From Diplonema japonicum (Eukaryota > Protista > Euglenozoa: Diplonemea), in contig OZ025745.1 in NCBI GenBank assembly GCA_964019335.1, positions 124,001 to 188,000 on the forward strand: a DNA stretch of 64,000 nt, in the 5' to 3' direction. The notes under the pieces are model-generated. The model was not told where the DNA came from, searched no databases, and saw nothing but the letters and a program-made list of their open reading frames with translations. Below are positions 7,835 through 63,842 of the stretch, in pieces. Numbering within the stretch: the stretch's first letter is position 1; each line of letters starts with the position of its first letter. Both the position numbers and the translations under genes were made by a program.

Positions 7835-10061
7835 TCAAGATTTCGCCTTTCCTTCCTTGTCCCACATCCCCCACCCTTTCTCAGAAGGGTATATTGTGTC
7901 CTTGACAGAGTCGTAGACTGACGGCACCTTCGCGAGTTCCTCATAGGTCATTGGTACTGGGGCCTCGCCTCGGAGCTGTCCCCTTCTTCGGAGTTCCATC
8001 TCGAAGGCGCTGGCCTTCATGTCGGTCATCATGGTGTCTAGCTCAGCTCGTCTTTGTTGCTGCTCGTGGTACCGCCTCGCGCCTATTTGTGCTGATATGT
8101 CGTAGAATCCTGTCTTGTTCATGAATAGTTCCATGCCTGCCCCCGCTACAAACCCCGCCCCCGCAAGGATGGCTAGCTGTGGTTTTTTTTTTTTTTTTTT
8201 CTTTTTTTTTTTTTTTTTCTTGTATAACCCCTAAAGGCCCGGAGCCTATCTACGGTACCCCCCCATTTTCGTTGTTGCTTTAAATACTCAAAAAAAAGGG
8301 CAGCATGCAACCATAGGAAGGTGCAAGGAAAGGGTAAACGGTACTAAAATTTTCAATTCCAGGTGCCAGATTCAGATGAGAACACTTAACTATGTGTGTA
8401 AGAGGGGGGTTGAGGGGGTACTTTTTATGTCCGACTTTGGGGGGTCTTGTCGTGGGGGGTCCGTGGAGTTATGGCTGGGGTAAATAGGGCAGCATTCAGC
8501 CCTATTTGGTGCCCTGAACTCTAGGATTGAGGTCAGTCTGGAGACTTTTTGGGGCTGTGGGATGAAAAAAGCAACTTGTGAGCTTTTTTTCCAGCTGGGG
8601 TAGCATGCAAGGGTAAAAAACACGTTTTGCATAAGGGGGTTTTGCAACAGGGACACCACGTTTGCACCTTCTTCCCGTACCCAGGAACAGCACAGAGCAC
8701 CCTCCTCACCTTCGTTCCGTTCATCATGGTCTCGGAGGTGTGATTTAGGGTCAAATCGAGACGTTTTGGGTATTTCTGAGTGAGGGAATCCTCATTGCTA
8801 GCGTGTTTGCGCTTGGGGGTCGGTTTTGGGGGCATGGGTGAGAAGCTTGCCAACAAGTTCTTCTTTGAAGCTCGGGAAGCCATAATTTTTGCCACATTCC
8901 CTGCTCTTCTTCCAGATTATGGAGGAGTTGGCAACACAGCTTTCCAGGACCCAATAAAAAACGACCATGGTCCACTTCCGGGTTTTCATATGCCGAACTC
9001 CAGTCCCCTGGAGCTGGTCTTGCCGGTCAGGGGTCGACAGCAAACCCTTAGGAGTCGACAGTACGCATGACTAGGTCCTGTGTTGTGGACTTCTTGCTGA
9101 AAATGTTGAAATTCGCCAGGTAACAGTTTTATGAGTCGCATGTAGCGATTACCTTGATGCCCACCGAGTTGCTTTTTCGTGGTGCCATGACTTTTATTGT
9201 TGTCGGGATAACACTGTCGTCAACAGACAACCACTTGCCAGGGGTCCGCACAGTCCTACACCGGTTGACAATGATGTCAAGAAACCTGCGCATGACTTAC
9301 TGATGTTTTCCAGGTTGTCAAAGGTGAGGTAGCGCTGTATGTCAACGAATCGGTTTGCTCATTTTCTCAAAAGCCGGGATGGCTAAAATAGAATCTGTTG
9401 TCCAGTAGCTCTTCATATTCGGTGCCGGGCGTAAACCCATTAACAGGACCAACCCAAGCCAAATTTTGTACTCTGGGATGGAAAGATTCAGATTCTGCTG
9501 TTTTTTTGAATCGAAACGACCGTTCGTGGAAGAAACTATGAGCTCAAGTACCGCGTGTGTAAAAAAAAAGATTAAAAACACCCTCCTCATTGGCCGCTTC
9601 ACCTAGAGGTGTCCAAAGCCCACCTTTTCACGGAAATGATATGTTTTGGGCCTTTGGGAGTATTTCTCCCACCCAAGCATCGTTTCCGGCCCCTCTTTGA
9701 CCGCCTCATCGTCTTTTTCTTCTTTTTCTGACCAGTCGGGCGAGACTCACGTTTTCGCTGCTATTTTGACCATCTGATTTCATTTTAAGCCAACCCTGCC
9801 GGTTTCAATTAAAACAAAACTTTTAACGCAAAATGTAGTTCCAAGACAAAATAAACCGCGCAACAATGCCATATTTTGAAGTCCAGGGGCCGTGTTCAAA
9901 AAAAAAGTACTTAGCGAAAAAAGCAAATTTTGAAATAAGGACAAAAACGTCCGCGCGGGCGTTTAGGGGATAAATATAAAAATAAATACCACGCTCTGCC
10001 GATCTCGCTTCGACATTGCTAATGCCACGCTGTGCTGACGTGCTCTTAATGCTCTAAACAT
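7835..10061 (-). CDS. Small (~137 aa) membrane protein, probably mitochondrial, UPF0640/SMIM4-like; its single intron (8177-9989) contains a piggyBac element
   Basis: Exon 1 9990-10061 MFRALRARQHSVALAMSKRDRQSV (Arg-rich, transit-like); GTATTT...CCACAG intron; exon 2 LAILAGAGFVAGAGMELFMNKTGFYD... in frame with ORF 7835-8134. Family call is from recalled motif only. Confidence 0.6.
8228..9969 (-). mobile_element. Non-autonomous piggyBac-family DNA transposon, copy 1 (1742 bp)
   Basis: TIRs CCCCTAAAGGCCCG / CGGGCGTTTAGGGG; ATAA duplicated on both sides; broken transposase (LGLVLLMGL...SYW, LSVDDS, DRQDQ...KTRKW, C-terminal CPCCKTPLCKTCFLPLH Cys-rich domain). Confidence 0.92.
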
Positions 10062-17357: not shown

Positions 17358-17701
17358 CCCCTCCCCTCCTCTCCTTTTTTTTGTTGAAATGGTGGGTCTG
17401 ACTGTTGGGGGGGGGGGGGGGGAGAGAAATAAAAAAGGAGAAAAAAATAGAAAAAGAAGAAAAAAAAAGAGAAAGAGAGAACCCCCTCAACTTTTTTTTT
17501 TTGAAAAAAACAAGGGGAAAAACGGAAAAAGGGTATTCCCACTTGAGGACCATCCTTTAAAAAAAAGAAGAAACGAAGGGGGGGGGGGGGGGGAGAAGTC
17601 TCTGAACAAGGAGGGGAAAGGGGCTATGCGGTGCATGTAAAAAAAAAAAAAAAACTATTCTTTTAAGGTATGCGTTTTTGCGCTCACCGGCCGCGCTGCG
17701 C

Positions 17702-20700
17702 TTAGTCCCCGTTGTCCCCGTTCTGGGGGCTCTGGCGGGTTCCTACTGCGGTGGTCATGCTGCGGGGCAGCCTTGTCGGTGTCTGCGACAGGTACCTGTC
17801 CCGCAAGCCTTCGATGCTGCTCATGGTTCGTTCCGGGAGTACTGGCCTCCTGTCATACCCGTGTGTGGTCGGTCCTCCGATACAGCGTAGGGAGTTGACG
17901 CGCTCCACTCGCGCCGCTGGGAACGCTACCCCTCTGCCATCAGCGTGGTACAGGTCCTGGACTCGTCTCAGCACATACCGTAGCCTCCTTGCCTTGACGC
18001 CCAGGTCCTCCACCTTGCCCACTTCCCCGCCGTCGTCCAGCGGCAGCTCCATCTCCCGCTCGAAGTCGAGGGCCAGCTCTAACGTCGTCACCGCCGTGTG
18101 CCGACCAGGCGCGTCATCCCACAGCAGGCCTCCCAACCACCTCAGCACCGGCCTCAGCAGCTTGTCCATCACCGTTCCTGACGCCCCCAGCCTTCGTAGT
18201 TCAGATACCGCCGGCGTCGGGTGCGCCCTCCCCGTCACGACCGCCCGCCACGGGTAAGCTTGTGTCTGCAGTGCGCGGTTCGCTTCCACCGCTGCATCCC
18301 TCCGCGTGACTACCTCCAGCAGGTACTTCTGCACCAGTAAGGCCCTTGGCTTGTCTTGGCAGCCTCTGGGCACCACCCCATGGAGCCTCGTCGCCTTCGG
18401 CATAGCTGCCGGGTCCAGGTTCGCGTACTCCACCTTGCTCTGCACCGCGACACCCGGCTCGCATCGCCAGAGGGCGTGCTCCAGCACCTCCGTGTAGCTG
18501 CCGAACCGTTCCTCACACACGTCGCAGAGGTGCTGCAGCGGGTTGTTCGGTTCCTGCGCCACGCCCCGCGCTCCCGGGTAGACCGCAAACACCGCTCCTG
18601 CAATCAGCCTCCTCAGTCGGTACGCCGCCACTGGGTTGCCCGAGAGTGACCTCCACCACACGTTCGTGTCCGGGTCGGCTCCCTCCGGCATGCCGTCGTA
18701 GGAGTCCCTCCCTTCTGCTAGCTCGGCTGCCGTCATGGCCCTCGCCACCCGCCGGATCTCGTGCTTGCGCTCGCGTTCCGGCATGGCACCCAGCCCCACC
18801 ACGAAATTCCAGCCTTTCCCGATCGCCGGCAGCCATCTTCTCATCAGGGTCCCCACTGGCCCCAGGGCTTCAATATCGCACTCCCGGTACAGGGCGGCAC
18901 ACCTCCCCATCCGGTCCCACAGCTCCGTATCCGACCCGCCTACCTTCACCACTGTGCACAGCAGTCGGTAAAGTGTCACCACCAGCGGGTCCGTCGTGTG
19001 CCCTGGCAGCAAGACGTTCGCAACAGCACACGGCGAGCGCATCTTGAACTTCGGTCCCCAGAGGCACGTCGCAACACTCGCTCGGATTGTACCCGCATCC
19101 ATTTTCGAGGGGGGTGCATAGGCAACACCGTAGAGGCAGGAGGGGAGAATGGAGCTGGTGAGGATCCTCGCCTTCTGTGTGAACCCCAGCGGCATGGCGG
19201 CCAGTCTCCCGCAAGCGCGTCCCATCGCCTCAAGGGGCTTCGCCCTGTGCTCGCCGTCCATACATACCCGGACTCCCAGGACGTTGATCTCCTTTTTGGC
19301 CGTGAGCACCTCACGTCCGCACTTCACCGTTCCGTGTTCTGCCGTTGTGAACAGGTCTGTCTTCCTCAGGTTGAGGTTCATCCCTGTCAGCAGAGAGAAC
19401 TCGCACACCCCCGCTGCCGCCTTCTCCAGGGCGCTGAGCAGAGCTGCTATCAAGTAGACGTCGTCCGCGTATGACAGGGAATCAGCGCCGGGCACCTCCG
19501 CCATGATGGCCTTCACCATCACCCCTACCAGCGCGTTCACCATCACCACCGAGATCGGGCACCCCTGCAGGATGCCGTTCGACGTAGCAAATTCGTCACC
19601 CACCCCTGTCGGGTATTTGAACCTCCGTCTGAGGGATTCGTACATCGTCTCCAGAGGGCGCAGTATGTTCTGATGCAGTCCCAGGTCCCCCATTAGCCCG
19701 AGCGCCACTTCCCGCGGGATTCGGTCGAAGCACTTGACAAAGTCTAGCGCGAGCCCGTGCATCGGCGTTCCCGATAGCAGAGCTTCTTCGAGCTGCGTCG
19801 TCAGTTCCAGCAGTAGCGTGTCCGTACCCCTCCTCGACCTAAACCCATGTTGTGACGCGTCCGCCCACGACTCCTGCCAGACCAAGATGCGTCTCATCCT
19901 CGTTGTCGCCCACAGCCTGTACACGGCGCTGGTGACGGTGATCGGGCGGTGGTCCAACGGGGCTCTGCCCTCGCCTTTCGGGATCAGAGAGACAAGCGCT
20001 GTCAATAGCGCCTCCGGCCACTTGCCGGTCTCCTCGACGATGTTGAAGAGCTGCGCCCACCTCTCGAGCAGCGCGTCAGGTATAGCCTTCAGTTCCGTGA
20101 TCCTCCAGCCGTCGACGCCTGGGGTGCCCCTCGCAGGTCTGCTGTTTAACACCTCCCTGAGGTCGCCCCCCGTGATCGGCTCCAGTTCCATGGGGTGTTT
20201 ATCGATATACCCGCCATACCTCTCTTTGAAAGCAGCGTAGGAAGGTCGGTCACTTTTGTCCGGGTACAGGTGGAAGACGGAGGCCCATGCCCCCCTCATC
20301 AGCGCGTCTATCTCCCCCAGATCTACCGTCAGCCTGCCGTCCTCCTTCGCGACTGCCAATGTGTGAACATCCTTGTCACCTCTAACGTAAGCTACGATCC
20401 TCCGCCTGTCGTCACGGAAATCAGCTGCCACCCGTTTCCTATAACTTGCCTCGTTCTCCAGGCGTTGCCGCATCACCGTGTCTCTGTCAGCCTGCTCCGC
20501 CGCAGCCTCCAGCTCCCGCAGTCCCACCAGCGCAGCCCCCAGGCTAGCGCCCCGTAGCAGGTCCTTGTCCGGCACGACCCCAAGGTGCATCTTCTCGGCC
20601 AGCTTAACGATGTTCCGCCACGTCCCGTGCAGCATCGCTGGCAGCGTCCCCGGCCCACCACGCAGCAGTGCCTCGTTCAGCCCCGTCCTGAGCGCCACGA

Positions 20701-21823
20701 TTTTCCTCCTGAGGCTGCCGTGCATCGTCTGGCCTCGTGCGGCAGCTCCCCCTGACGTCCCCGTCGACTTCGCTGCTACCATCTTCTCCGTCAGCTCTCG
20801 CGGCTCTCCTCTGCCTACGTACGACCTCACCTCCGTCACTCCGGCTGAGCTCAGCATATAGCGTTCGGTAGCGCAGCTCAGCAAGGCGTAGAGGCCCCCC
20901 ACGTCCCTGGCGTCAACTGCTTGGTGGATTGCGTCGTCGCCGGCAAGCCCTTGGTCAAGATCAGCGTCGGGCGTCACCGCTCCCACCGGTAGCTCCTTCG
21001 GGAGGAAGAAACGTTTCGTCCGCTTCTTGAGCGTCGGCGTGAAGAGCTCAACGGACAGACACAGGTGCTCCCCGGTCCGCACCCTCTTGTGTGTCCAGAA
21101 GCGTTTCAGCGCTCCGGCAGCCACCGCGTTGGCCAGGACGAAGTCTATCCGCGTCTTCGTCTCCGTCCCGGGTCGTTCGAAGGTGTGGTCCGGTTCCCGT
21201 CCGTCCTTCTCGGCCTGAAGCGCCCCGACGTCGACCCAGTCGTTTTCCACCGCGTGTTTCAGCGTCGCTGACCCGGAAACGTCCGTGTTCAGATCCCCTA
21301 AGACCAGGATCGGCACCTCCCCGAGTTTAGCCCTCAGTTCAACGAGCAGCGAGTGTAGGAGTCGTTCCCTGTCAGCCTTCCCGTAGTGGCCGGCGCTGCA
21401 GTACACCGTGATGACGTGGACCCATAGATCGCGGCCATCCACATTTATCATAGTGTGCAGCCACCTGTTCGGCTGCACTGTGATCCCCGATACTGGAGCC
21501 ACGATGGCCGGCCTGCCTTTCTTCGTCAGCACAGCGACGCCCCCCCTTTGCCCAAGGTTTGGATTGAGTACCCCTGCCCTGTCCGGCGTGCCATCCTGAG
21601 CGCGACCCCACAGGGGGTGATACCCGCCTTCATCAACAGCTTGCGACAGTTGGCGTTGACCGTGCTCAGTGAGTTTGGTCTCCTGCAGGCAGATCACCTC
21701 ATCCTGCGTTGCTAGGACCTGCGGGAGCTTGTTGTGCAGGGACCCGACATTCACCGATGTGATCCGGAGCACGTCATCGAGCAGAGGTGGGCCACTAGCG
21801 CTTCCTCCACTCATCCCTGCCAC
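17702..21823 (-). CDS. LINE ORF2: apurinic-like endonuclease + reverse transcriptase + C-terminal Cys/His finger
   Basis: APE motifs SVNVGSL, LQET, GDLN, RIDFVL; RT motifs PGVDGW, RPIT, QHGFR, LDFVKCFD, GILQGCPIS, YADD (19460-19471); CDVC...H...C. First ATG at 21814; in frame with ORF1. Confidence 0.95.
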   Translation of the reverse strand: MAGMSGGSASGPPLLDDVLRITSVNVGSLHNKLPQVLATQDEVICLQETKLTEHGQRQLSQAVDEGGYHPLWGRAQDGTPDRAGVLNPNLGQRGGVAVLTKKGRPAIVAPVSGITVQPNRWLHTMINVDGRDLWVHVITVYCSAGHYGKADRERLLHSLLVELRAKLGEVPILVLGDLNTDVSGSATLKHAVENDWVDVGALQAEKDGREPDHTFERPGTETKTRIDFVLANAVAAGALKRFWTHKRVRTGEHLCLSVELFTPTLKKRTKRFFLPKELPVGAVTPDADLDQGLAGDDAIHQAVDARDVGGLYALLSCATERYMLSSAGVTEVRSYVGRGEPRELTEKMVAAKSTGTSGGAAARGQTMHGSLRRKIVALRTGLNEALLRGGPGTLPAMLHGTWRNIVKLAEKMHLGVVPDKDLLRGASLGAALVGLRELEAAAEQADRDTVMRQRLENEASYRKRVAADFRDDRRRIVAYVRGDKDVHTLAVAKEDGRLTVDLGEIDALMRGAWASVFHLYPDKSDRPSYAAFKERYGGYIDKHPMELEPITGGDLREVLNSRPARGTPGVDGWRITELKAIPDALLERWAQLFNIVEETGKWPEALLTALVSLIPKGEGRAPLDHRPITVTSAVYRLWATTRMRRILVWQESWADASQHGFRSRRGTDTLLLELTTQLEEALLSGTPMHGLALDFVKCFDRIPREVALGLMGDLGLHQNILRPLETMYESLRRRFKYPTGVGDEFATSNGILQGCPISVVMVNALVGVMVKAIMAEVPGADSLSYADDVYLIAALLSALEKAAAGVCEFSLLTGMNLNLRKTDLFTTAEHGTVKCGREVLTAKKEINVLGVRVCMDGEHRAKPLEAMGRACGRLAAMPLGFTQKARILTSSILPSCLYGVAYAPPSKMDAGTIRASVATCLWGPKFKMRSPCAVANVLLPGHTTDPLVVTLYRLLCTVVKVGGSDTELWDRMGRCAALYRECDIEALGPVGTLMRRWLPAIGKGWNFVVGLGAMPERERKHEIRRVARAMTAAELAEGRDSYDGMPEGADPDTNVWWRSLSGNPVAAYRLRRLIAGAVFAVYPGARGVAQEPNNPLQHLCDVCEERFGSYTEVLEHALWRCEPGVAVQSKVEYANLDPAAMPKATRLHGVVPRGCQDKPRALLVQKYLLEVVTRRDAAVEANRALQTQAYPWRAVVTGRAHPTPAVSELRRLGASGTVMDKLLRPVLRWLGGLLWDDAPGRHTAVTTLELALDFEREMELPLDDGGEVGKVEDLGVKARRLRYVLRRVQDLYHADGRGVAFPAARVERVNSLRCIGGPTTHGYDRRPVLPERTMSSIEGLRDRYLSQTPTRLPRSMTTAVGTRQSPQNGDNGD

Positions 21824-21841
21824 AAGCTGTAATTGCTATTG
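21824..21841 (-). promoter_or_regulatory. Stop-codon readthrough signal CAA TAG CAA TTA CAG (UAG-CARYYA, TMV type)
   Basis: Minus strand reads CAA CAA TAG CAA TTA CAG CTT GTG GCA GGG ATG, with ORF1 and ORF2 in the same frame. Confidence 0.8.
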
Positions 21842-24127
21842 TTGTTGTTGTTGCACCGGCCCTTGGGGCAGCAGTAGCGGGGTGGCCGGGTGCTGTGGGT
21901 CGACCTGCATCTGTCCCGTTGGTGTGCTAGCGGTGGATCTCGTGCCGGACTTCGAGACCTTCCCGCCCTTTTCCTCACCTCCTGCCGTCCTCTTCCGACT
22001 AGCACTGCTCGTCAACGCCACCGCCGCCAACTCGGCAAGCTGTTGTTCCACGTCCATCAAACGCATTTGCGTGCTCTCCTGCGCCTTCTGCATCCGAGTG
22101 ATCTTTGCCAGGGCCTCTCGTAGTGCCTGCGCCATCGCCTGCTGGTCCGCCTGCCTCCTCTCCTGCTCGAGTCGAAGCTTCGCCATCGTCTCCTCGTGTC
22201 GGCGGTCCTTTTCGGCGTACTCGGCCTCCTTGGGCTGCCACCACGAGTGGAACGATTGCTCGGCTCCCTCACTCCGCGTCGGTCGCTTGGCAGGTCGAGG
22301 TTGTGCGGCGGGCCGCAGGGGTGGGAAGTCGCTCGTCTTGTTCTTGGTCGCAGGTGGAGGGGGAGGCTTATGTGCTGGCTTCTTTGCCCCACCCTTGCTC
22401 CCCCACGTGGAGTGCTTCAGGAGGTCTCCTTCCGCACCGTGCGGCCGGATCAGCCACTGCTCGTCGCCGCTCTCGAACATGAGGCCTGGTGGATCAGCCT
22501 CCGACGCTACCAGCCATGTGCAGGTTTTTCTGCCACTCGCCAGTACGCGCACCGCTTGTGCTGCCCACCCGATCGCGCGCAGCCTCTGCTCCACCACCAG
22601 CCCCGGGACCTGCGTTCCCATCCCCTTGACCGTGAAGGGGGCCCCCTTGATCGGCACCGGACGGCGGTCCTTCACCTTCTTCGCGGTCCTGTTGTGGAGG
22701 AAGGCCACCATTTCTTCTAGTCGTTCTGCTTTCACGCGGATCCCGTACTCTCCCGTGCCCTTGCTCCATGCCACCCCCAGCCCGTCTGCCTGCTTTGCGA
22801 GGAGAGCGGCGTCAGTCGCCGAGGCGCCTTCGATCCACAGAACGGGAAATTTGCTCGTCGATTGGTGTGGGGGACGTACATAGACTCCACCGGTCCCACT
22901 GTGTCGGTACAGGGTCTCCAGGTCCGCTCGGGCAACTACCATGCACAGCTCGGCGCAGCCGTCCCTCTTCGATCCCGTCCTCGGCTCGACCCGCGCCGTG
23001 CACTTGCTCGCGGCCCAGCGAACGAGGTCCCTCCTTGCGTCGTGGTAGTCCTTCTTGGTCCTCTCCACCAAGTAGACCTCGGCAGCACAGCTCTCGACCG
23101 CGGGGACTACCACCGTCTTCTTGACCTGCTTCAGGGGTGCGCCGCCCTTCGCCGTCACCCACAGCCTGCGCACACACCTGCCCTTGCCGCCGTCGGTCGC
23201 CAGCACCACCTGCTCCAGTACTCCCGGCATCGTGGGGAGTTTGGCCCTGGACACCAAGGTGGGTCCTTCCTTGTCGTCTGCGTCCATCAGCCACAGGGAC
23301 GCCACCTTTTCCATACCTGCAGGGACGAGCAGGACCGATCTGTTCCTGCCCACCTGCGGCGTCCAGTCGCCGGAGAATGCCTCCCAGCCGTCACTCACCA
23401 GCACCGCGTCGTCTTTCGTCGTTGCCTCGTTGTCACCGTCCTCGGCGTCCTTCGTTTCCTTAGCCTTTCGGGCTGCTGCCGCTCTCCTCTTCGCGCTCTC
23501 GCTCAGGAAGGGCATGGGCACCTTCGGGTTGTTGTAGGTGCCTGCTGCCGGGAGCGTTGTGCCCTCACGCACCGACAGCGCCACGTAATGGGCGGCAGCG
23601 AACCCCAGGTATATGGTGCTCTCTACCGCGTTGCGCGAGGGGAAGGAGGTGCACAACAGCTCCCCGTCCTTCACCTGGTAGCAGGCCAGGTGGCGCCGGC
23701 ACACCACGCTGAGCGCGAGGAGCTGCAGGATGTCCCCCCACGCTCCGTCCTTCACTGCTTGCACATATTCCCCGTAGCGCTCGGGGGCATACAGCAGTGC
23801 ACTGTTGTCGGTTGATGCCAGGTGGCTAGCCACCAGCTCCCTCAAGGCCGATCCAGCAGAGGTGCCCTGATGGATCGCTACTGATGTCGCCTCGTAGAGG
23901 CAGTCCCCCTCCGTCTTGGAGAAGTCTCTGATCGAGAACCCTTCTCCCAGCTTCGCCTGAAGCTCCGCCTTCGCCTTGCCCACCTCGCTTCCCGTTCCCG
24001 TCCCGCGGCCGGAGCCTTCGCCGCTACCACCACCCCCCATGTGGCAGCGTTGCCCGGGGTTCAACCTCGAGGAGGTCGCTCCCACCGCGCTGGACGTCGA
24101 TGATAGTGTTGGTGTTGATGTTGCCAT
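21836..24127 (-). CDS. LINE ORF1 with N-terminal OTU-like cysteine protease domain and C-terminal coiled coil
   Basis: EGDCLYEA (Cys 23900-23902) ... LRELVASHL ... YVQAVKDGAWGDILQLLALS ... IYLGFAAAHYVAL (His 23588-23590) follows the OTU signature. Confidence 0.85.
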   Translation of the reverse strand: MATSTPTLSSTSSAVGATSSRLNPGQRCHMGGGGSGEGSGRGTGTGSEVGKAKAELQAKLGEGFSIRDFSKTEGDCLYEATSVAIHQGTSAGSALRELVASHLASTDNSALLYAPERYGEYVQAVKDGAWGDILQLLALSVVCRRHLACYQVKDGELLCTSFPSRNAVESTIYLGFAAAHYVALSVREGTTLPAAGTYNNPKVPMPFLSESAKRRAAAARKAKETKDAEDGDNEATTKDDAVLVSDGWEAFSGDWTPQVGRNRSVLLVPAGMEKVASLWLMDADDKEGPTLVSRAKLPTMPGVLEQVVLATDGGKGRCVRRLWVTAKGGAPLKQVKKTVVVPAVESCAAEVYLVERTKKDYHDARRDLVRWAASKCTARVEPRTGSKRDGCAELCMVVARADLETLYRHSGTGGVYVRPPHQSTSKFPVLWIEGASATDAALLAKQADGLGVAWSKGTGEYGIRVKAERLEEMVAFLHNRTAKKVKDRRPVPIKGAPFTVKGMGTQVPGLVVEQRLRAIGWAAQAVRVLASGRKTCTWLVASEADPPGLMFESGDEQWLIRPHGAEGDLLKHSTWGSKGGAKKPAHKPPPPPATKNKTSDFPPLRPAAQPRPAKRPTRSEGAEQSFHSWWQPKEAEYAEKDRRHEETMAKLRLEQERRQADQQAMAQALREALAKITRMQKAQESTQMRLMDVEQQLAELAAVALTSSASRKRTAGGEEKGGKVSKSGTRSTASTPTGQMQVDPQHPATPLLLPQGPVQQQQQ

Positions 24128-24158
24128 AATGTTTCTTTTAACCCAAATTCAGAACCCC
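24005..24158 (-). ncRNA. HDV-like self-cleaving ribozyme at the LINE 5' end, overlapping ORF1
   Basis: P1 GGGGTTC/GAACCCC; P2 GCGGT-G-GGAGC/GCTCC-G-GCCGC; P3 ACC/GGT; L3 TCCTCGA; GG-GCAA; P4 CGCTGCCAC/GTGGTAGCG; J4/2 GCGAA with catalytic-C equivalent at 24020. Confidence 0.88.
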
Positions 24159-25008
24159 TGAAAAAAAAAAAAAAAAAATGGCAGTGTTCAAAACTCCATT
24201 TTTTAATTTCCCCTTCCGGCCTCTCAGTGCAGGAAAAAGGACCAAAAGAAAAGGAGAAAAACTAACACAAGAAAAAAAAGGGGTAAAGTGCAATAATGTG
24301 AAGACCGGACAGGGGTGGTGGTGGCAGTGGAGGGAAAGGTACAAGAAACTTTACGTACCCCTTCCTTTTCTATTTCTTTTTTTTTTTATTTTGTGAACTC
24401 TCCCCTCCTTTGTTTATATTCTTCTCTTTCTATTTTTTTTTTTCTTCGATTTTCAAAACAAACAAGATAGAGTGTCAGGGCACGAAAAGAATGTTGGGAA
24501 CAAAAAAAGAAGAGAGAGAAAAAAAATGGGGCAAACCGGAGCACAGCCATTTTAAGTTTCCTCTCCCCCCCACTTTTTTTTCTTTGTTCCTCTTTGGCTT
24601 TCGCCTACAAAAAACAGGGGCCCAAAAGAAGGGCTTAACTGTTATTATTTCTTCTTTTCCGTCCAGAAAGATCTCCTGAAGAAAATAATTTAAAAAAAAA
24701 AAAATTCAAATTAACATGCAAGCCCCTAAGACGAAAGCCGCACGCCCTAAAAAAGGGAAGGGTAGGTCAATACTAGGTATCTCAGTTTCGGTCAAATCTC
24801 GCGACTCCGTCAGGTGCTGCCTCTTACGGCGAGAGGCACCCCTCAATAGCTCCTACCAGCGTCCCACAGGTTGGAGAGTACTTTTCCCGACCAAAAAAAA
24901 AATATATATATGTGTTAAAGGAAGTCTTTGTGAGACGCCCCCTTGTTCTCATCTTCTACCTGCAAAAAAGAAAGAAAAAGAACCTCGGTGATTCATGTAC
25001 TAGACTAG

Positions 25009-25094
25009 GTGGCGCCTTGCACAAGCAATGTCTACTTAATACAGGGGACGCACCTCGGCCGAGCTGTAGCTTTTTGATTCGTGCGGTGTGCAGC
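25009..25094 (-). repeat. Degenerate fragment of the 12561-12883 element
   Basis: ggcgccttgcacaagcaatgtctacttaatacaggggacgcacctcggccgagctgtagc aligns to 12590-12651. Confidence 0.7.
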
Positions 25095-25932
25095 AAAAAA
25101 AAAAAAAAAAAAAAAAAAAATCATTATGTACAAATCTCACGGATAAGACAAGATAACTCGTAAAGGAAAACAAAAAGAAGAGAAAAAAAAGTGTATTTAT
25201 ACCCCCCCCTTAACGGGGGGAGCGCTGAAGCTACAGTTAAAAATTATTTCCTCCGTTCATTTTCTTCTTCTTCTTCTTCTTCTTTACTCTTTTTTTTTTC
25301 AAACACTTAAAGGGGGGGGGGGGGGGGAGAGAGATAAGAGGAGCGCCTGCCTTTGTGGTACTCAGCAAATTTCTATCTCAAAAAGGTTTTTTTCTCTTTT
25401 TTTTTTTTTTTTGCACAGTCTGTTGACGCAGTATTGCAAGAGGGGGGGGGGGGGGGGGGGGAACAGAAAGAAAAAAAAAGAAGAAGAGTGAAAGGTAGCT
25501 GATAGCTGATCATCCTTGATAGGTTCCATTCTTTTTTTTTTAATTTTCTTTTGCTGGTGACTGACCGAAGAGGACCTCCCCCCCCTCCCCTGTAACGAGT
25601 GTGAACGAAATGGATCGTTAAAGAGGATTTTTAAATTCCATTCATCTTTTGGTGATGAAAACACAAAGTGGGGGAAAAAAAAAAAAACCGAACAACTGGG
25701 TCTATTTATCAGGCAGAAGGCTTTTTTTTTTTTTTTTTTTTTTTTCTTTCCAGTCAGTTCCTTGACTTTGTGCATGCTTAACCTGGGGACGAAAGGAAGG
25801 TCAGAAGAAAAAAAAAAAGAAAAAAAAAACCAAAAAAAACCCCCCGCCCCCCCCCCCCCCCCTTTTTTTTCCCCCGAAAGGACGAAAAAATGGACAATCA
25901 ATAATTTTTTTTTTTTTTTTTTTCTATACAAC

Positions 25933-29717: not shown

Positions 29718-29772
29718 TATGTTTGGAATGTCTTCCCTCTACCTTGGTGTTTTTATTTAAAAAAAAAAAAAA

Positions 29773-30295
29773 CTATTCTGTTAACTGAATCGTCCAATAC
29801 TACCTATAGGCGGTCTTGCAACGACCACCACAGCCATCGCCAACGTGCCAAAAAATGGGCTAAACTCGCACACTGGTGTGAGCTTCAAGGGAGCTAAACG
29901 TTTCAGACATGGCGTGCCACACCCATAGGCCTCACGACCGGGGAGGGGGGCATTTATCTTTCGCCCGTAAGCTAGAGTGCGCATGCATCCCCAGCTCGCT
30001 TTGGGAGGTGTTGCCAACACCTGGGTCGCTTCGCGGTCCGACCTGCTGCCCAATTCAAAGCGCGGTTGCGGTGAATCCAAGCCCCCTAAGCATCGACACG
30101 ATTAACAAAGGGGTTTGTTACGCCGGGATATCTTGTTCACCAATGCTCCATACGCCCCCTGTTGCCAGTTCGCCGGATGAGCATACTGCAGGGTCTTCCA
30201 CTCATCCGTTGCCCGGTGGGTACCACGAGGAGGTCAGCAACAATTCTATACTTTTGGCCACGTAGGGCCTGTTCTACATTTAGTATAGTCCCACC
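29773..30295 (-). mobile_element. Short non-coding retroposon (523 nt) headed by an HDV-like ribozyme
   Basis: No convincing ORF. Begins T17-CA|GG like the LINE and ends TTAACAGAATAG-T14 versus LINE TTAAAAGAATAG-T16. Confidence 0.7.
30159..30295 (-). ncRNA. HDV-like self-cleaving ribozyme
   Basis: P1 GGTGGG(A)/(A)CCCACC; J1/2 stem CTATACT/AGTATAG; P2 TTGTTGCTG/C(T)GGCAACAG; P3 ACC/GGT; L3 TCCTCGT; GG-GCAA; P4 CGGATGAG/CTCATCCG; GCGAA with catalytic-C equivalent at 30172. Confidence 0.85.
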
Positions 30296-30451
30296 TGAAA
30301 AAAAAAAAAAAAAACCAGGGAAAACAGGTGAAAAAAACCAATAAAAATGAGGGGAGGGGAGAGAGTGGGGACAAGGGGGGGGGGGGGGGGGGAGAAAAGA
30401 AAAAAATAGTGTACGTGGAAAGCATTTTTTTTTTTAAAAGAAAAGAACTTA

Positions 30452-30655
30452 CTAGACCCCCTTGACCTGCTCCGCAGGTGGAATGCATTGCATCACACAC
30501 CCGTGGTAGGTCTGTTTAACCACTGGTGGAGGGGGTGCCTTCTTTTTGTTCAACTTTGAGTAGTCAATCGGCCCACAAGACTCCTTGTAAATGTTGTCCT
30601 TCATGTCATCCTTCCCAAAGGTACTCATGCTGTGTAAAGTGTGGTTCTTGTACAT
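30452..30655 (-). CDS. 67-aa microprotein, copy 1
   Basis: Protein identical to 32699-32902; the 5 nucleotide differences I find are all synonymous. Confidence 0.75.
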   Translation of the reverse strand: MYKNHTLHSMSTFGKDDMKDNIYKESCGPIDYSKLNKKKAPPPPVVKQTYHGCVMQCIPPAEQVKGV

Positions 30656-30753
30656 TTTCTTTTTTTTTTTTTCCGGCTTGTTGTATAAGTGTAGAGACCT
30701 TTTTTTTTGTTTTTGTTGTTGTGTGCTTTTTTTTTTTTCTTTTTTTTTTTTAT

Positions 30754-32538
30754 CCCCTAAACGCCCGGAGCCTATCTACGGTACCCCCCCATTTTCGTTG
30801 TTGCTTTAAATACTCAAAAAAAGGGCAGCATGCAACCATAGGAAGGTGCAAGGAAAGGGTAAACGGTACTAAAATTTTCAATTCCAGGTGCCAGATTCAG
30901 ATGAGAACACTTAACTATGTGTGTAAGAGGGGGGTTGAAGGTGTACTTTTTATGTCCGATTTTGGGGGGTCTTGTCGTGGGGGGTCCGTGGAGTTATGGC
31001 TGGGGTAAATAGGGCAGCATTCAGCCCTATTTGGTCCTGAACTCTAGGATTGAGGTCAGTCTGGAGACTTTTTGGGGCTGTGGGATGAAAAAAGCAACTT
31101 GTGAGTTTTTTTCCAGCTGGGGTAGCATGCAAGGGTAAAAAACACGTTTTGCATAAGGGGGTTTTGCAACAGGGACACCACGTTTGCACCTTCTTCCCGC
31201 ACCCAGGAACAGCACAGAGCACCCTCCTCACCTTCGTTCCGTTCATCATGGTCTCGGAGGTGTGATTTAGGGTCAAATCGAGACGTTTTGGGTATTTCTG
31301 AGTGAGGGAATCCTCATTGCTAGCGTGTTTGCGCTTGGGGGTCGGTGACGGTGTTGTCGGGGAGTGTGTGCTATCGGTTTTGGGGGCATGGGTGAGAAGC
31401 TTGCCAACAAGTTCTTCTTTGAAGCTCGGGAAGCCATAATTTTTGCCACATTCCCTGCTCTTCTTCCAGATTATGGAGGGGTTGGCAACACGGCTTTCCA
31501 GGACCCAATAAAAAACGACCATGGTCCACTTCCGGGTTTTCATATGCCGAACTCCAGTCCCCTGGAGCTGGTCTTGCCGGTCAGGGGTCGACAGCAAACC
31601 CTTAGGAGTCGACAGTACGCATGACTAGGTCCTGTGTTGTGGACTTCTTGCTGAAAATGTTGAAATTCGCCAGGTAACAGTTTTATGAGTCGCATGTAGC
31701 GATTACCTTGATGCCCACCGAGTTGCTTTTTCGTGGTGCCATGACTTTTATTGTTGTCGGGATAACACTGTCGTCAACAGACAACCACTTGCCAGGGGTC
31801 CGCACAGTCCTACACCGGTTGACAATGATGTCAAGAAACCTGCGCATGAGGTGCAGTTTCAGGCCTTCCAAATGCTTTCCAGGTTGTCAAAGGTGAGGTA
31901 GCGCTGTATGTCAACGAATCGGTTTGCTCATTTTCTCAAAAGCCGGGATGGTTAAATTAGAATTTGTTGTCCAGTAGCTCTTCATGTTCGGTGCCGAGCG
32001 TAAACCCATTAACAGGACCAACCCAAGCCAAATTTTGTACTCTGGGATGGAAAGATTCAGATTCCGCTGTTTTTTTGAACCGAAACGACCGTTCGTGGAA
32101 GAAACTATGAGCTCAAGTACCGCGTGTGTAAAAAAAAAGATTAAAAACACCCTCCTCATTGGCCGCTTCACCTAGAGGTGTCCTAAGCCCACCTTTTCAC
32201 GGAAATGATATGTTTCGGGCCTTTGGGAGTATTTCTCCCACCCAAGCATCGTTTCCGGCCCCTCTTTGACCGCCTCATCGTCTTTTTCTTCTTTTTCTGA
32301 CCAGTCGGGCGAGACTCACGTTTTCGCTGCTATTTTGACCATCTGATTTCATTTTAAGCCAACCCTGCCGGTTTCAATTAAAACAAAACTTTTAACGCAA
32401 AATGTAGTTCCAAGACAAAATAAACCGCGCAACAATGCCATATTTTGAAGTCCAGGGGCCGTGTTCAAAAAAAAAGTACTTAGCGAAAAAAGCAAATTTT
32501 GAAATAAGGACAAAAACGTCCGCGCGGGCGTTTAGGGG
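30754..32538 (-). mobile_element. Non-autonomous piggyBac-family transposon, copy 2 (1785 bp)
   Basis: Perfect 14-bp TIR CCCCTAAACGCCCG; TTAT duplicated on both sides; same broken transposase as copy 1. Confidence 0.92.
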
Positions 32539-32698
32539 TTATTCGGAAAAAATTCAAAAAAAAAGTGTAAAATTTATAACAAATAAATATAAGTCAAGTG
32601 TAGTGAGATAAAAAGGAAGAAGAAAAAAGCGGAGGGAAAAAGGAGAAAAAATTCAAAAAAAAAAAAATAACTCCTTCCCCTCCCCAGCACGCAACTCC

Positions 32699-32902
32699 CT
32701 AAACCCCCTTGACCTGCTCCGCAGGTGGGATGCATTGCATCACACACCCGTGGTAGGTCTGCTTGACCACTGGTGGAGGGGGTGCCTTCTTTTTGTTCAA
32801 CTTTGAGTAGTCAATCGGCCCGCAAGACTCCTTGTAAATGTTGTCCTTCATGTCATCCTTCCCAAAGGTACTCATGCTGTGTAAAGTGTGGTTCTTGTAC
32901 AT
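32699..32902 (-). CDS. 67-aa microprotein, copy 2
   Basis: MYKNHTLHSMSTFGKDD...CIPPAEQVKGV*; duplicate of 30452-30655. Confidence 0.75.
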   Translation of the reverse strand: MYKNHTLHSMSTFGKDDMKDNIYKESCGPIDYSKLNKKKAPPPPVVKQTYHGCVMQCIPPAEQVKGV

Positions 32903-33250
32903 TTTTTTTTTTTTTTTTTTTTTTTTCGTGGGGTATCTGTGGAGAAAAAATTCAGCTGGGGGAAAGAAAAAAAAAAGGAACAAAATGAAATTGGGTGCAC
33001 TGGGTACAAAGCGGGGGGGGTGGAGGGGAGGGGGGAAGGGAAAAGAGAGTACGTGGAGCAAAAGAAAAAAAAAAGGAGGGAGGGTAAGCGGGGGGGGGGG
33101 GGGGGGGACAACAGAGAATAAAAAAAAACTTTTTTTTCGTATCGGGAACGGGGAAGAGGACACTCGAAAACAAAAAAAAGAGAAAAAAAAAAAAGAAATA
33201 CACTAAAAAAAAAAAAAAATAAAAAAAAAAAAAAAAACACCCCTACCATT

Positions 33251-61804: not shown

Positions 61805-61822
61805 TGTAAAAAAATGAAATAA

Positions 61823-62778
61823 CCCCTAAAGGCCCGGAGCCTATCTACGGTACCCTCCCATTTTCGTTGTTGCTTTAAATACTCAAAAAAAGGGCAGCAT
61901 GCAACCATAGGAAGGTGCAAGGAAAGGTAAACGGTACTAAAACTTTCAATTCCAGGTGCCAGATTCAGATGAGAACACTTAACTATGTGTGTAAGAGGGG
62001 GGTTGAGGGGGTACTTTTTATGTCCGTTTTGGGGGGTCTTGTCGTGGGGGGTCCGTGGAGTTATGGCTGGGCTAAAAAGGGCAGCATTCAGCCCTATTTG
62101 GTGCCCTGAACTCTAGGATTGAGGTCAGTCTGGAGACTTTTTGGGGCTGTGGGATGAAAAAAGCAACTTGTGAGTTTTTTTTTCTAGCTGGGGTAGCATG
62201 CAAGGGTAAAAAACACGTTTTGCATAAGGGGGTTTTGCAACAGGGGCACCACGTTTGCACCTTCTTCCCGTACCCAGGAACAGCACAGAGCACCCTCCTC
62301 ACCTTCGTTCCGTCTTGAATCGAAACGACCGTTCGTGGAAGAAACTATGAGCTCAAGTACCGCGTGTGCAAAAAAAAAGATTAAAAACACCCTCCTCATT
62401 GGCCGCTTCACCTAGAGGTGTCCTAAGCCCACCTTTTCACGGAAATGATATGTTTTGGGCCTTTGGGAGTATTTCTCCCACCCAAGCATCGTTTCCGGCC
62501 CCTCTTTGACCGCCTCATCGTCTTTTTCTTCTTTTTCTGACCAGTCGGGGGAGACTCACGTTTTCGCTGCTATTTTGACCATCTGATTTCATTTTAAGCC
62601 AACCCTGCCGGTTTCAATTAAAACAAAACTTTTAACGCAAAATGTAGTTCCAAGACAAAATAAACCGCGCAACAATGCCATATTTTGAAGTCCAGGGGCC
62701 GTGTTCAAAAAAAAAGTACTTAGCGAAAAAAGCAAATTTTGAAATAAGGACAAAAACGTCCGCGCGGGCGTTTAGGGG
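61823..62778 (-). mobile_element. Internally deleted piggyBac derivative, copy 3 (956 bp)
   Basis: Same TIRs; ATAA duplicated on both sides; ~800-bp deletion with junction near 62313. Confidence 0.92.
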
Positions 62779-63842
62779 ATAAAGAAAAAAATTCTTAAAG
62801 CTTTTGAAAAAGAATATAAAAAAAAAAATTCACACAGGAATTTTGTACCTCCCTGCAGTTTTTTCTTTCTCTCTCTTCTTTTATTCGTTCGCTTTTTTTT
62901 TCTCTTCCCCCCCCCCTCCCCTTCAGCGTCAAAAGAATTTATATGTTTAATTAAAACCGAATATCTTTTTCTTTTTAGAAATAGATCCTCTCAGCACCCG
63001 TTTGAATTCCCCTGAGGGGCACTGGGTAGTTCTTAGGATTTTGATACTTTTATTTTTCTTTTTTACTTTTTTTTTTCTCTTCGTTTTTCTTCGTTCTGAT
63101 TTGGAAAATCTTTTTTTTGGAAGTCTTTTTTTTTCTTTCTCCTTTGTTTCTCGAGCTTGAGGGGGTATTTTTTTTTTTTTTGTTCGCCCTGCTCTTGCGC
63201 GTACTGACTTACTTTTATGGGGAGGGGGAAGCTCGGGGGTTTTCCCCTTCCAGTTTTGTTGCTACTTCTGCCTAATTTCTTTGAAGTTCTTGTCTCACCA
63301 AATATCGGAAAGACCTCCAAAAAAAAGAAGGGGGGAAAAAAAAAAAGAAGAAAAACAATAACAACAACAAAACTACGGGGGGTTGATCAAATTACTTTTT
63401 TTTTCCTTCTTTTTTTCGCTTCTTTCCTTTTTTTTTTTTTTTTTTTTTTGAAACTTTCTTAATGAAGGTAGAACAGCCAATCACACAAGAATAGTACATG
63501 TGAATAAGAAAGAAAGAAGAAAAAAAAGGGGGAGATTTACATAGTACGGGGGGGGGGGGGGGATTAGCAACTACACCCCCCCCCAAAAAAATAACATTGC
63601 CAATAAGTCAGTCTCAGCATTCAAATCCCTTCTGCCTCCTCTTTTTGGCCACGCCTTCTCAAATTGGCATGAAAAAGACCAAAGGGTCATGCCAACCGCA
63701 AGAAGAAACAGAATAAAAAGGAAGAATGGGGAATGACAATATTTTTTTTCTTTTTTTTTTTTTTTTAAAGGATGGAGGTGCTAACTTAACCCCCGCCCCC
63801 GCTCTTTTTTTTTTTTTTTTTTTAAATAAAATATCCCCGAGA

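Follow-up and report, generated by a model that had tools for sequence, protein, structure and literature searches.

How does a retrotransposon that carries two open reading frames (ORFs) on one RNA keep its second product scarce, and how is that RNA freed from the transcripts of its host? Both questions are raised by a long interspersed nuclear element (LINE) in a stretch of 64,000 nucleotides from the diplonemid Diplonema japonicum (assembly GCA_964019335.1, contig OZ025745.1, positions 124,001 to 188,000), hereafter the window. The LINE occupies 17655-24158 on the minus strand, with G24158 as its first base and G17655 as its last, and is an intact non-LTR retrotransposon in which an N-terminal APE endonuclease and a non-LTR reverse transcriptase (RT) share one frame (Pfam), which places it among the APE-type LINEs. 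A first-pass annotation had described an intact element at this position with a 5' hepatitis delta virus (HDV)-like fold, an OTU-type ORF1, an in-frame UAG-CAA-UUA junction to APE-RT and T-runs at both ends, and we found all four features where it had put them. The production of little ORF2 from one RNA by two-ORF LINEs has been settled for few elements, and readthrough in LINEs has been proposed from sequence, without demonstration in the literature searched. Diplonemid genes are likely co-transcribed and trans-spliced, and a rigorous classification of diplonemid transposons is still absent (PMC10161547).

We propose the following model, which is the best reading of the locus and a probable one. 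The LINE RNA would be cut out of host co-directional (polycistronic) transcripts by the predicted 5' HDV-like fold, and the endonuclease/RT would be made as a rare ORF1-ORF2 fusion via low-level readthrough of a single UAG. Most ribosomes would end at the UAG, giving abundant RNA-coating ORF1 protein with its OTU domain, RRM-like domains and coil, and a few per cent of ribosomes would continue past it. The leaky stop would keep ORF2 low, as would the 2A-like peptide that sister families have at this position. The exact match to a viral readthrough signal, beside families that use 2A, makes the idea that such signals hold ORF2 down directly testable. Within the literature searched, these would be the first readthrough signal and the first ribozyme from diplonemids.

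The junction between ORF1 and ORF2

ORF1 (21836..24127, minus strand; 763 aa plus TAG) starts at the ATG at 24127, with a further in-frame ATG at 24040, and is continued in the same frame by ORF2 (17702..21835, minus strand; 1377 aa). One in-frame TAG lies between them, and both frames are otherwise open over 6.4 kb. Recomputing the size of the fusion as 763+1+1377 gives the 2141 aa that the first-pass annotation had proposed. The junction at 21827..21841 (TAG at 21838-21836) reads CAA-TAG-CAA-TTA-CAG, an exact match to the readthrough context xxA-UAG-CAA-UUA-xxG, which is invariant in 105 tobamovirus sequences (PMC3159437); UAG-CAR-YYA with an A at position -1 is likewise satisfied. From codon usage the expectation for CAR-YYA is 8.5e-4, and the TTA codon is used only five times in 2140 codons, the earliest of them at the junction. 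Since host genes end in TAG (4 of the 10 checked), the junction TAG is a true stop and no artefact of the code; a reassigned TAG in the host is thereby ruled out.

Could the stop be a lesion? A single-ORF element might have been inactivated when a CAG within a run of Gln codons became TAG, the viral context being there by chance. The stop does lie among CAA repeats, and single-ORF fusions are known in relatives: stop-free ORF1-APE fusions occur naturally in P0081 and P0022. This explanation is contradicted by the presence of the stop in the collapsed sequence of public runs from two studies, in which long contigs of runs X6 and X8 span it unchanged, and by its recurrence in a second subfamily, both frames being fully open over 6.4 kb otherwise. 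Transcript-derived D. japonicum proteins 97% and 82% identical to ORF1 stop at the same place as the ORF1 of the LINE. A stop common to a subfamily 82% identical in ORF1 is no private lesion. P0004, a frameshifted isoform of the 82% subfamily, is decodable at this site only as CAA-TAG-YAA-YTA, and a +1/-1 pair at 21821/21826 yields its next residues, which ties P0004 to the divergent contig found in X3 and X8. The reading as an inactivated single-ORF element is thus largely refuted, and we regard it as very improbable. As far as copies were checked, conservation holds: the second subfamily has the same stop, and a short partner element, described below, has the same ends and ribozyme core.

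Several observations weigh against readthrough. In runs X3 and X8 the aligner placed a gap of 6 nt over the TAG in the divergent contig; the length of the gap is consistent with two fewer CAA codons, as in P0002 and P0004, but a stop-free variant may exist in these runs. The CAA that follows the stop might derive from the Gln run. An extended stem-loop predicted to start 7 nt past the stop (21726..21828, minus strand) stands out from dinucleotide shuffles (z -2.8) but not significantly from synonymous shuffles (z -0.2 to -1.5), so that support for it is weak. Among 11 distant loci from metagenomes or metagenome-assembled genomes (MAGs) that reach the start of APE, none has stop-CAR-YYA before it. 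Finally, the first AUG of the ORF2 frame (21812..21814, minus strand), 7 codons past the stop, corresponds in alignment to the start Met in two families of 45-47% identity, P0005 and P0006, which is what reinitiation would predict.

This AUG opens a second route to ORF2. The same element with the same ribozyme could make ORF2 as a separate protein by termination and reinitiation, as has been proposed for mammalian L1 and SART1, or both routes could operate together; a weak stop context and a downstream stem would aid such coupling. The AUG is present in both subfamilies (the P0004 frame ends at the same GGG-ATG-A), it matches start Met residues that lie 8-12 aa upstream of APE in P0005 and P0006, and SART1 relies on structure downstream of its stop-restart site (PMC5972666). 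The Met of the relatives is partly an annotation effect, however, because gene-calling programs take the first Met as the start irrespective of where translation really begins, and the AUG lies inside the predicted stem. Reinitiation also leaves unexplained why all 11 letters of the tobamovirus context, a rare TTA codon among them, stand in an element of 63% GC. We consider reinitiation, alone or in combination, a rather unlikely account. Readthrough, judged from the sequence of the junction, is probably the main route to ORF2.

The HDV-like fold and a non-coding partner

What would free the RNA? The predicted HDV-like ribozyme fold of the LINE (24011..24158, minus strand; 148 nt) covers the first 39 codons of ORF1, the in-frame ATG at 24040 falling in its P4 loop. 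The cut is predicted between 24159 and 24158, exactly at the first base of the element, with C24020 as the putative catalytic residue. The fold is a nested double pseudoknot in which all 26 predicted pairs are standard (P1 7/7, P2 5/5, P3 3/3, P1.1 2/2, P4 9/9). A strict HDV descriptor matched once in 64 kb on both strands, exactly at G24158, in agreement with the fold that had been annotated at the head of the element, and gave any match in 1 of 60 shuffles of the LINE.

The strongest support for the ribozyme reading is a second fold, from outside the LINE itself. A non-coding partner of 523 nt (element 30295-29773, minus strand; 29759..30314 with its T-runs) starts after T17-CA, has an HDV-like fold of its own (30295-30160, with C30172 as the putative catalytic residue) and is followed by T14. 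All 27 predicted pairs of this fold are standard. The two folds have L3, P1.1, GGCAAC and GGCGAA in common, making the cores almost identical, and the sequences of P1, P2 and P4 are unrelated; at better than E 0.4, blastn aligns partner and LINE over the 31-nt core alone. Aligned to the Rfam HDV consensus, both folds have the L3 pyrimidines, the GG of P1.1 and the catalytic C of J4/2. A core pattern common to both, and derived from those two matches, is found at two places in the window and in none of 100 shuffles. With a relaxed descriptor there are two matches, at 24158 and 30295; this descriptor is weak on its own because 12 block shuffles also match (0-2 per strand).

Against a ribozyme stand the Rfam HDV scores of the LINE and partner folds, 19.6 and 21.7 bits, far below the gathering cut-off of 50, which we attribute to the long J1/2 that makes the models mis-pair P1. 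A whole-window Rfam scan gave 89 matches at E up to 1, mostly low-complexity and none of them HDV-like. One contig of run X3 has a 12-nt deletion through P2/P3, and a C-to-G variant at 24047 (letters of the element strand) disrupts a P4 pair as far as the letters are listed. The 8 variant positions listed in four public runs fall in J1/2 (5), the P4 loop (2) and P4 (1), with none in P1', P3, L3 or P1.1, a tally to which J4/2, P2' and the 5' strand of P1 do not belong, variants near contig ends being unlisted. The constancy of the ribozyme core among LINE copies may itself reflect the protein, because the core is also coding. Weighing both sides, we consider that the LINE fold is very probably a working ribozyme, a judgement drawn from sequence and predicted pairing.

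At 24050-24100, within the ribozyme core, the summed depth of run X3 exceeds that of ORF1 about eightfold; this may indicate further short derivatives, or merely overlapping short contigs.

The partner is likely a non-autonomous element, SINE/RIME-like, related to the LINE as RIME/NARTc are to ingi/L1Tc. It ends in TTAACAGAATAG before its T14, as the LINE ends in TTAAAAGAATAG before T16, and both begin right after Tn-CA. We envisage that it would be mobilised in trans through the common 3' end. The T14 of the partner lies 42 nt upstream of the ATG of the katanin gene, a place at which one would expect a splice tract.

Ends, copies and insertion

The T-runs reported at both ends are present. 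In the 5' flank, T18 (24178-24161) is followed by CA (24159..24178 in all, minus strand), which together with G1 forms a poly(U)+CAG that resembles a splice acceptor; on the 3' side, a 47-nt untranslated region ends with TTAAAAGAATAG at 17655 and is followed by T16 (17639..17701, minus strand). A T-run alone means little here, because runs of at least 12 are common in the host, with 64 on the minus strand of the window and 67 on the plus strand. The letters beside the runs are more telling: CAG follows 3 of the 64 minus-strand runs, two of these being the element starts, and none of the 67 on the plus strand, and GAATAG precedes 2 of the 64, both of them element ends, and again 0 of 67.

The runs on either side of the LINE could be a target-site duplication or a tail. 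We propose that the ribonucleoprotein would nick a bottom-strand A-run, prime on the U-run at the RNA end and insert into sense-strand poly(T) tracts. Two features of the ends do not sit easily with this scheme: the 5' Tn-CA is kept by LINE and partner, though a cleaved RNA would not carry it, and it is no clean target duplication, because the CA is not repeated after the 3' T-run of the partner. Lying upstream of the predicted cut, Tn-CA must therefore have one of three sources: the target, a template left uncleaved, or end joining of a fixed kind. Work on R2 has linked uniformity of the 5' junctions to target-homologous RNA that remains upstream (PMC3774820).

The Tn-CAG also suggests another use of the 5' end. 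The mRNA might be made by spliced-leader trans-splicing at this site; the ribozyme would then serve chiefly to terminate the host transcript upstream, or would act on only a fraction of the RNA, and uncleaved RNA with Un-CA would be the template of full-length insertions. Tn-CAG has the canonical shape of an acceptor, and 3' splice sites of Diplonemidae end in CAG (PMC12621601); Tn-CA is kept by both elements, and R2 offers a precedent of upstream target-homologous RNA (PMC3774820). Copying of a trans-spliced RNA would leave a leader sequence, yet one is found at neither genomic 5' end, and intron tracts of D. japonicum are reported to be A-rich (PMC12621601). Five intact helices in two unrelated sequences favour selection on cutting at G1. 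Trans-splicing as the source of the mRNA thus seems improbable to us, and release by the ribozyme remains the preferred account.

No further copy of the LINE body lies within the window. Elsewhere in the genome, copies were assessed from contig depth in the assembled public runs X3, X4, X6 and X8 from two studies, a measure that gives no copy number. In each of the four runs depth climbs toward the 3' end. The single-contig depths of X4, taken from ORF1 to the 3' end, are 55, 62, 87, 110, 183 and 349 (the last at 18.2 kb), and its flanks have 10-13. The gradient is consistent with a few full-length and many 5'-truncated copies. A point against this is run X6, in which the flanks are deeper than ORF1. 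No empty site was found among the 15 of 32 joints listed.

Measured in 1-kb bins, the GC content of the LINE is 61-66%, higher than the roughly 40-55% of its surroundings; A/T runs are very frequent in the window. Host genes, among them GCN1, katanin, XPG and PGM, bear introns and lie on the minus strand, and this single strand carries all 10 host genes with checked ends and both elements. The genes that flank the LINE (17301 and 27788, minus strand, as is the LINE) are paralogues that both start with MGCCG and are 31.5% identical over 352 aa; no Pfam family was found for them.

Protein domains, relatives and precedents

What do the two proteins contribute? The OTU-like cysteine protease domain of ORF1 (23573..23950, minus strand) was recognised by Pfam (E 1e-7, over the cut-off), by PDB sequence and by a model with fold search, and thus the OTU-type ORF1 of the first-pass annotation is borne out. 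Cys76 and His180 are present, with Glu at Cys-3. In the catalytic triad of OTU proteases Asp or Asn is expected at His+2; the domain has Val there, a point against the activity that we propose for it. The best matches, by PDB sequence and fold search, are the cellular OTUD1 and DUBA, with viral OTUs lower. The label "virus-like" that had been given to the element says too much: the fit of the OTU to cellular OTUs is no worse than its fit to a viral one, the domain recurs across the clade, an OTU on a LINE ORF2 protein is already in a preprint, and a viral origin is unsupported by any evidence. We found no evidence for OTU cutting the ORF1-ORF2 polyprotein. The domain may act as a deubiquitinase rather than as a cutter of the fusion, the least supported step of our model.

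The core of ORF1 (aa 348-562; 22442..23086, minus strand) is predicted to hold three RRM-like domains: in a structure model of low confidence (mean pLDDT 48 for ORF1) these are three alpha/beta domains resembling tandem RRMs, Foldseek matched them to the Prp24 RRMs (E 4e-4), and the same core recurs in ORF1s of related families. The best ESM Atlas match of the core, at 0.83, is an unconfirmed lead. The model also predicts a long coiled-coil helix of 90 residues (aa 622-713; 21989..22264, minus strand).

In ORF2, APE (21754-21125, minus strand; Pfam E 2.5e-10) and RT with a YADD motif (19981-19265, minus strand; Pfam E 6e-18) are followed by a CCHC knuckle (aa 1104-1125; 18526-18461, minus strand), recognised from sequence and model. 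The best PDB sequence matches are L1 ORF2p and R2. The model of the C-terminus (pLDDT 89) compares with the C-terminal parts of R2 and L1 at Z 7.0/5.8/5.2, with 132-168 residues aligned at a root-mean-square deviation of 4.2-6.2; Foldseek found nothing for it at E 0.001. No RNase H was found in ORF2 by Pfam, and the region after RT models as the knuckle and a winged-helix-like domain. This extra domain at the end of ORF2 (about 18223-17849, minus strand) is conserved and confidently modelled, and weakly resembles the winged helix of Fur/PerR (Z no higher than 5.0).

Relatives of ORF2 are mostly proteins of D. japonicum, D. ambulator and D. papillatum. In an RT tree built by a quick method (69 rows, with long-branch warnings, and without named ingi, RTE, L1 or CR1 references), the LINE groups with P0005, P0006 and P0008 (SH-aLRT 99), and this group is sister (97) to one with 2A-like and OTU-APE members; P0170, a named dinoflagellate RT, falls in the same broad clade. 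We counted by hand what precedes APE in 34 relatives, taking from each cluster a single protein in which the start of APE is intact and excluding cut-start rows: a 2A-like motif in 17, an in-frame OTU in 8, an in-frame ORF1 core in 4 and none of these in 5. Because the protein records start at the first Met, this tally may miss motifs upstream of it, and a number of the fusions could be joins of gene models. A stand-alone ORF1 with OTU, core and coil, like that of the LINE, occurs in an 11-member D. papillatum cluster, and P0086, a protein that bears a cytosine methyltransferase domain as SymbioLINE-Dnmt does, matches the ORF1 core (E 9.7e-4).

Distant metagenome loci add to this picture. In L002 (1091) and L008 (240) an ORF1-like end and ORF2 are in frame across a single UGA-C, and a GEAxNPGP variant of the 2A motif lies further downstream in both. 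The HDV descriptor, applied to 40 metagenome loci, returned 10 rows, none at an element 5' end. A full-length distant relative (L012, 1-130) starts after a (CA)n run with an HDV L3/P3-like string, a ribozyme at this 5' end being unconfirmed by descriptors or Rfam. Among viral contigs, 66 pattern matches included no relative of the LINE. Fragments of the LINE clade (L041-L045) occur on five short contigs of prokaryotic MAGs, likely eukaryotic sequence brought in by binning contamination.

Taken together, these comparisons allow a tentative generalisation, which we put forward as possible rather than probable. In a large LINE clade of diplonemids and dinoflagellates, the spot before APE may be a swappable expression valve (2A-like skip, OTU, fusion or leaky stop). 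One diplonemid branch may have independently evolved the complete tobamovirus signal and combined it with an HDV-like ribozyme inside coding sequence and with poly(U)/poly(T) priming, a mirror image of the usual kind, by which splice tracts of the host would be targeted and duplicated; short partners headed by ribozymes would travel with it.

Each part has precedent. HDV-like ribozymes are known at the 5' ends of R2, R4 and RTE, which resemble the LINE in a cut predicted at the first base of the element and in a long J1/2 (PMC3774820); R2 differs in its specificity for rDNA and its REL endonuclease, the LINE having APE and an intergenic position. In L1Tc/ingi a 5' HDV-like ribozyme frees the element from co-transcripts, and NARTc, RIME and SIDER are short non-autonomous partners (PMC4035085, PMC12278014); a 2A before APE is known and has been proposed to lower ORF2 (PMC3894237). 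These euglenozoan APE-RT LINEs resemble our model in a 5' HDV-like ribozyme, short partners and viral-type recoding before APE, and ribozyme release from polycistronic RNA, as predicted here, fits this known biology; if true, it would reach beyond the ingi clade. Ingi is a single-ORF element with RNase H, a hallmark of 77 nt and a tail of poly(A), whereas the LINE has two in-frame ORFs, an ORF1 with OTU, RRM-like domains and coil, no RNase H that we could find, a 148-nt ribozyme within the coding region, a leaky stop instead of 2A (no 2A-like motif was found before its APE) and T-runs, with T16 at the sense end.

Symbiodinium offers two-ORF APE-RT LINEs with captured enzyme domains: SymbioLINE-Dnmt elements lack a poly(A) tail (PMC5890265), and in S. 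necroappetens an OTU sits on the LINE ORF2 protein (PMC13405545), not on ORF1 as here. SymbioLINE-Dnmt has a DNA methyltransferase in ORF1 and RNase H in ORF2, and a Pfam search of the LINE found neither; the published text examined for the Symbiodinium LINEs mentions no ribozyme or readthrough. OTU domains are also known from Ginger and Helitron transposons (PMC2836005). In Paramecium, group 3 non-LTR elements have ORF1 and ORF2 in one frame, and readthrough of the ORF1 stop was proposed from consensus sequences (PMC5405496); compared by description, they belong to a ciliate clade and have short-repeat 3' ends, and the accessible text mentions no ribozyme, OTU or CAR-YYA. T-runs at both ends of the LINE mirror the poly(A) ends and poly(A) targeting of Candida Zorro3, an L1-clade element with a homopolymer run at both ends that inserts into that homopolymer (PMC3956500); Zorro3 differs in having poly(A) rather than poly(T), several in-phase stops between its ORFs and a zinc-knuckle ORF1.

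The type I readthrough signal of tobamoviruses, benyviruses and pomoviruses has the identical context before the polymerase (PMC3159437), and CARYYA has been reported for LTR elements (PMC3441728). The occurrence of the tobamovirus-type context in a protist LINE is likely convergence. What may be new is the combination of ribozyme, OTU ORF1, leaky stop, T-run ends and partner. The first-pass annotation knew of no description of its four-feature combination, and our search of the open literature likewise found no paper describing this family or combination of features; a description may exist in Repbase or Dfam, in subscription journals or in supplements such as those to the P. papillatum genome paper.

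The window contains other repeats. Three copies of a 1.8-kb element (8225-9983, 30751-32541 and 61819-62792) are 95-99% alike, the third being internally deleted; the terminal inverted repeats are short, a Cys-rich remnant is present, and the element is presumably akin to non-autonomous piggyBac-type DNA transposons. The second copy is flanked by a 213-nt direct repeat (30446-30658 and 32693-32905; 96.7% alike). At 24746-25100 lies a repeat unrelated to the LINE, for which contig depth is very high in each of the four runs and loose ends are numerous.

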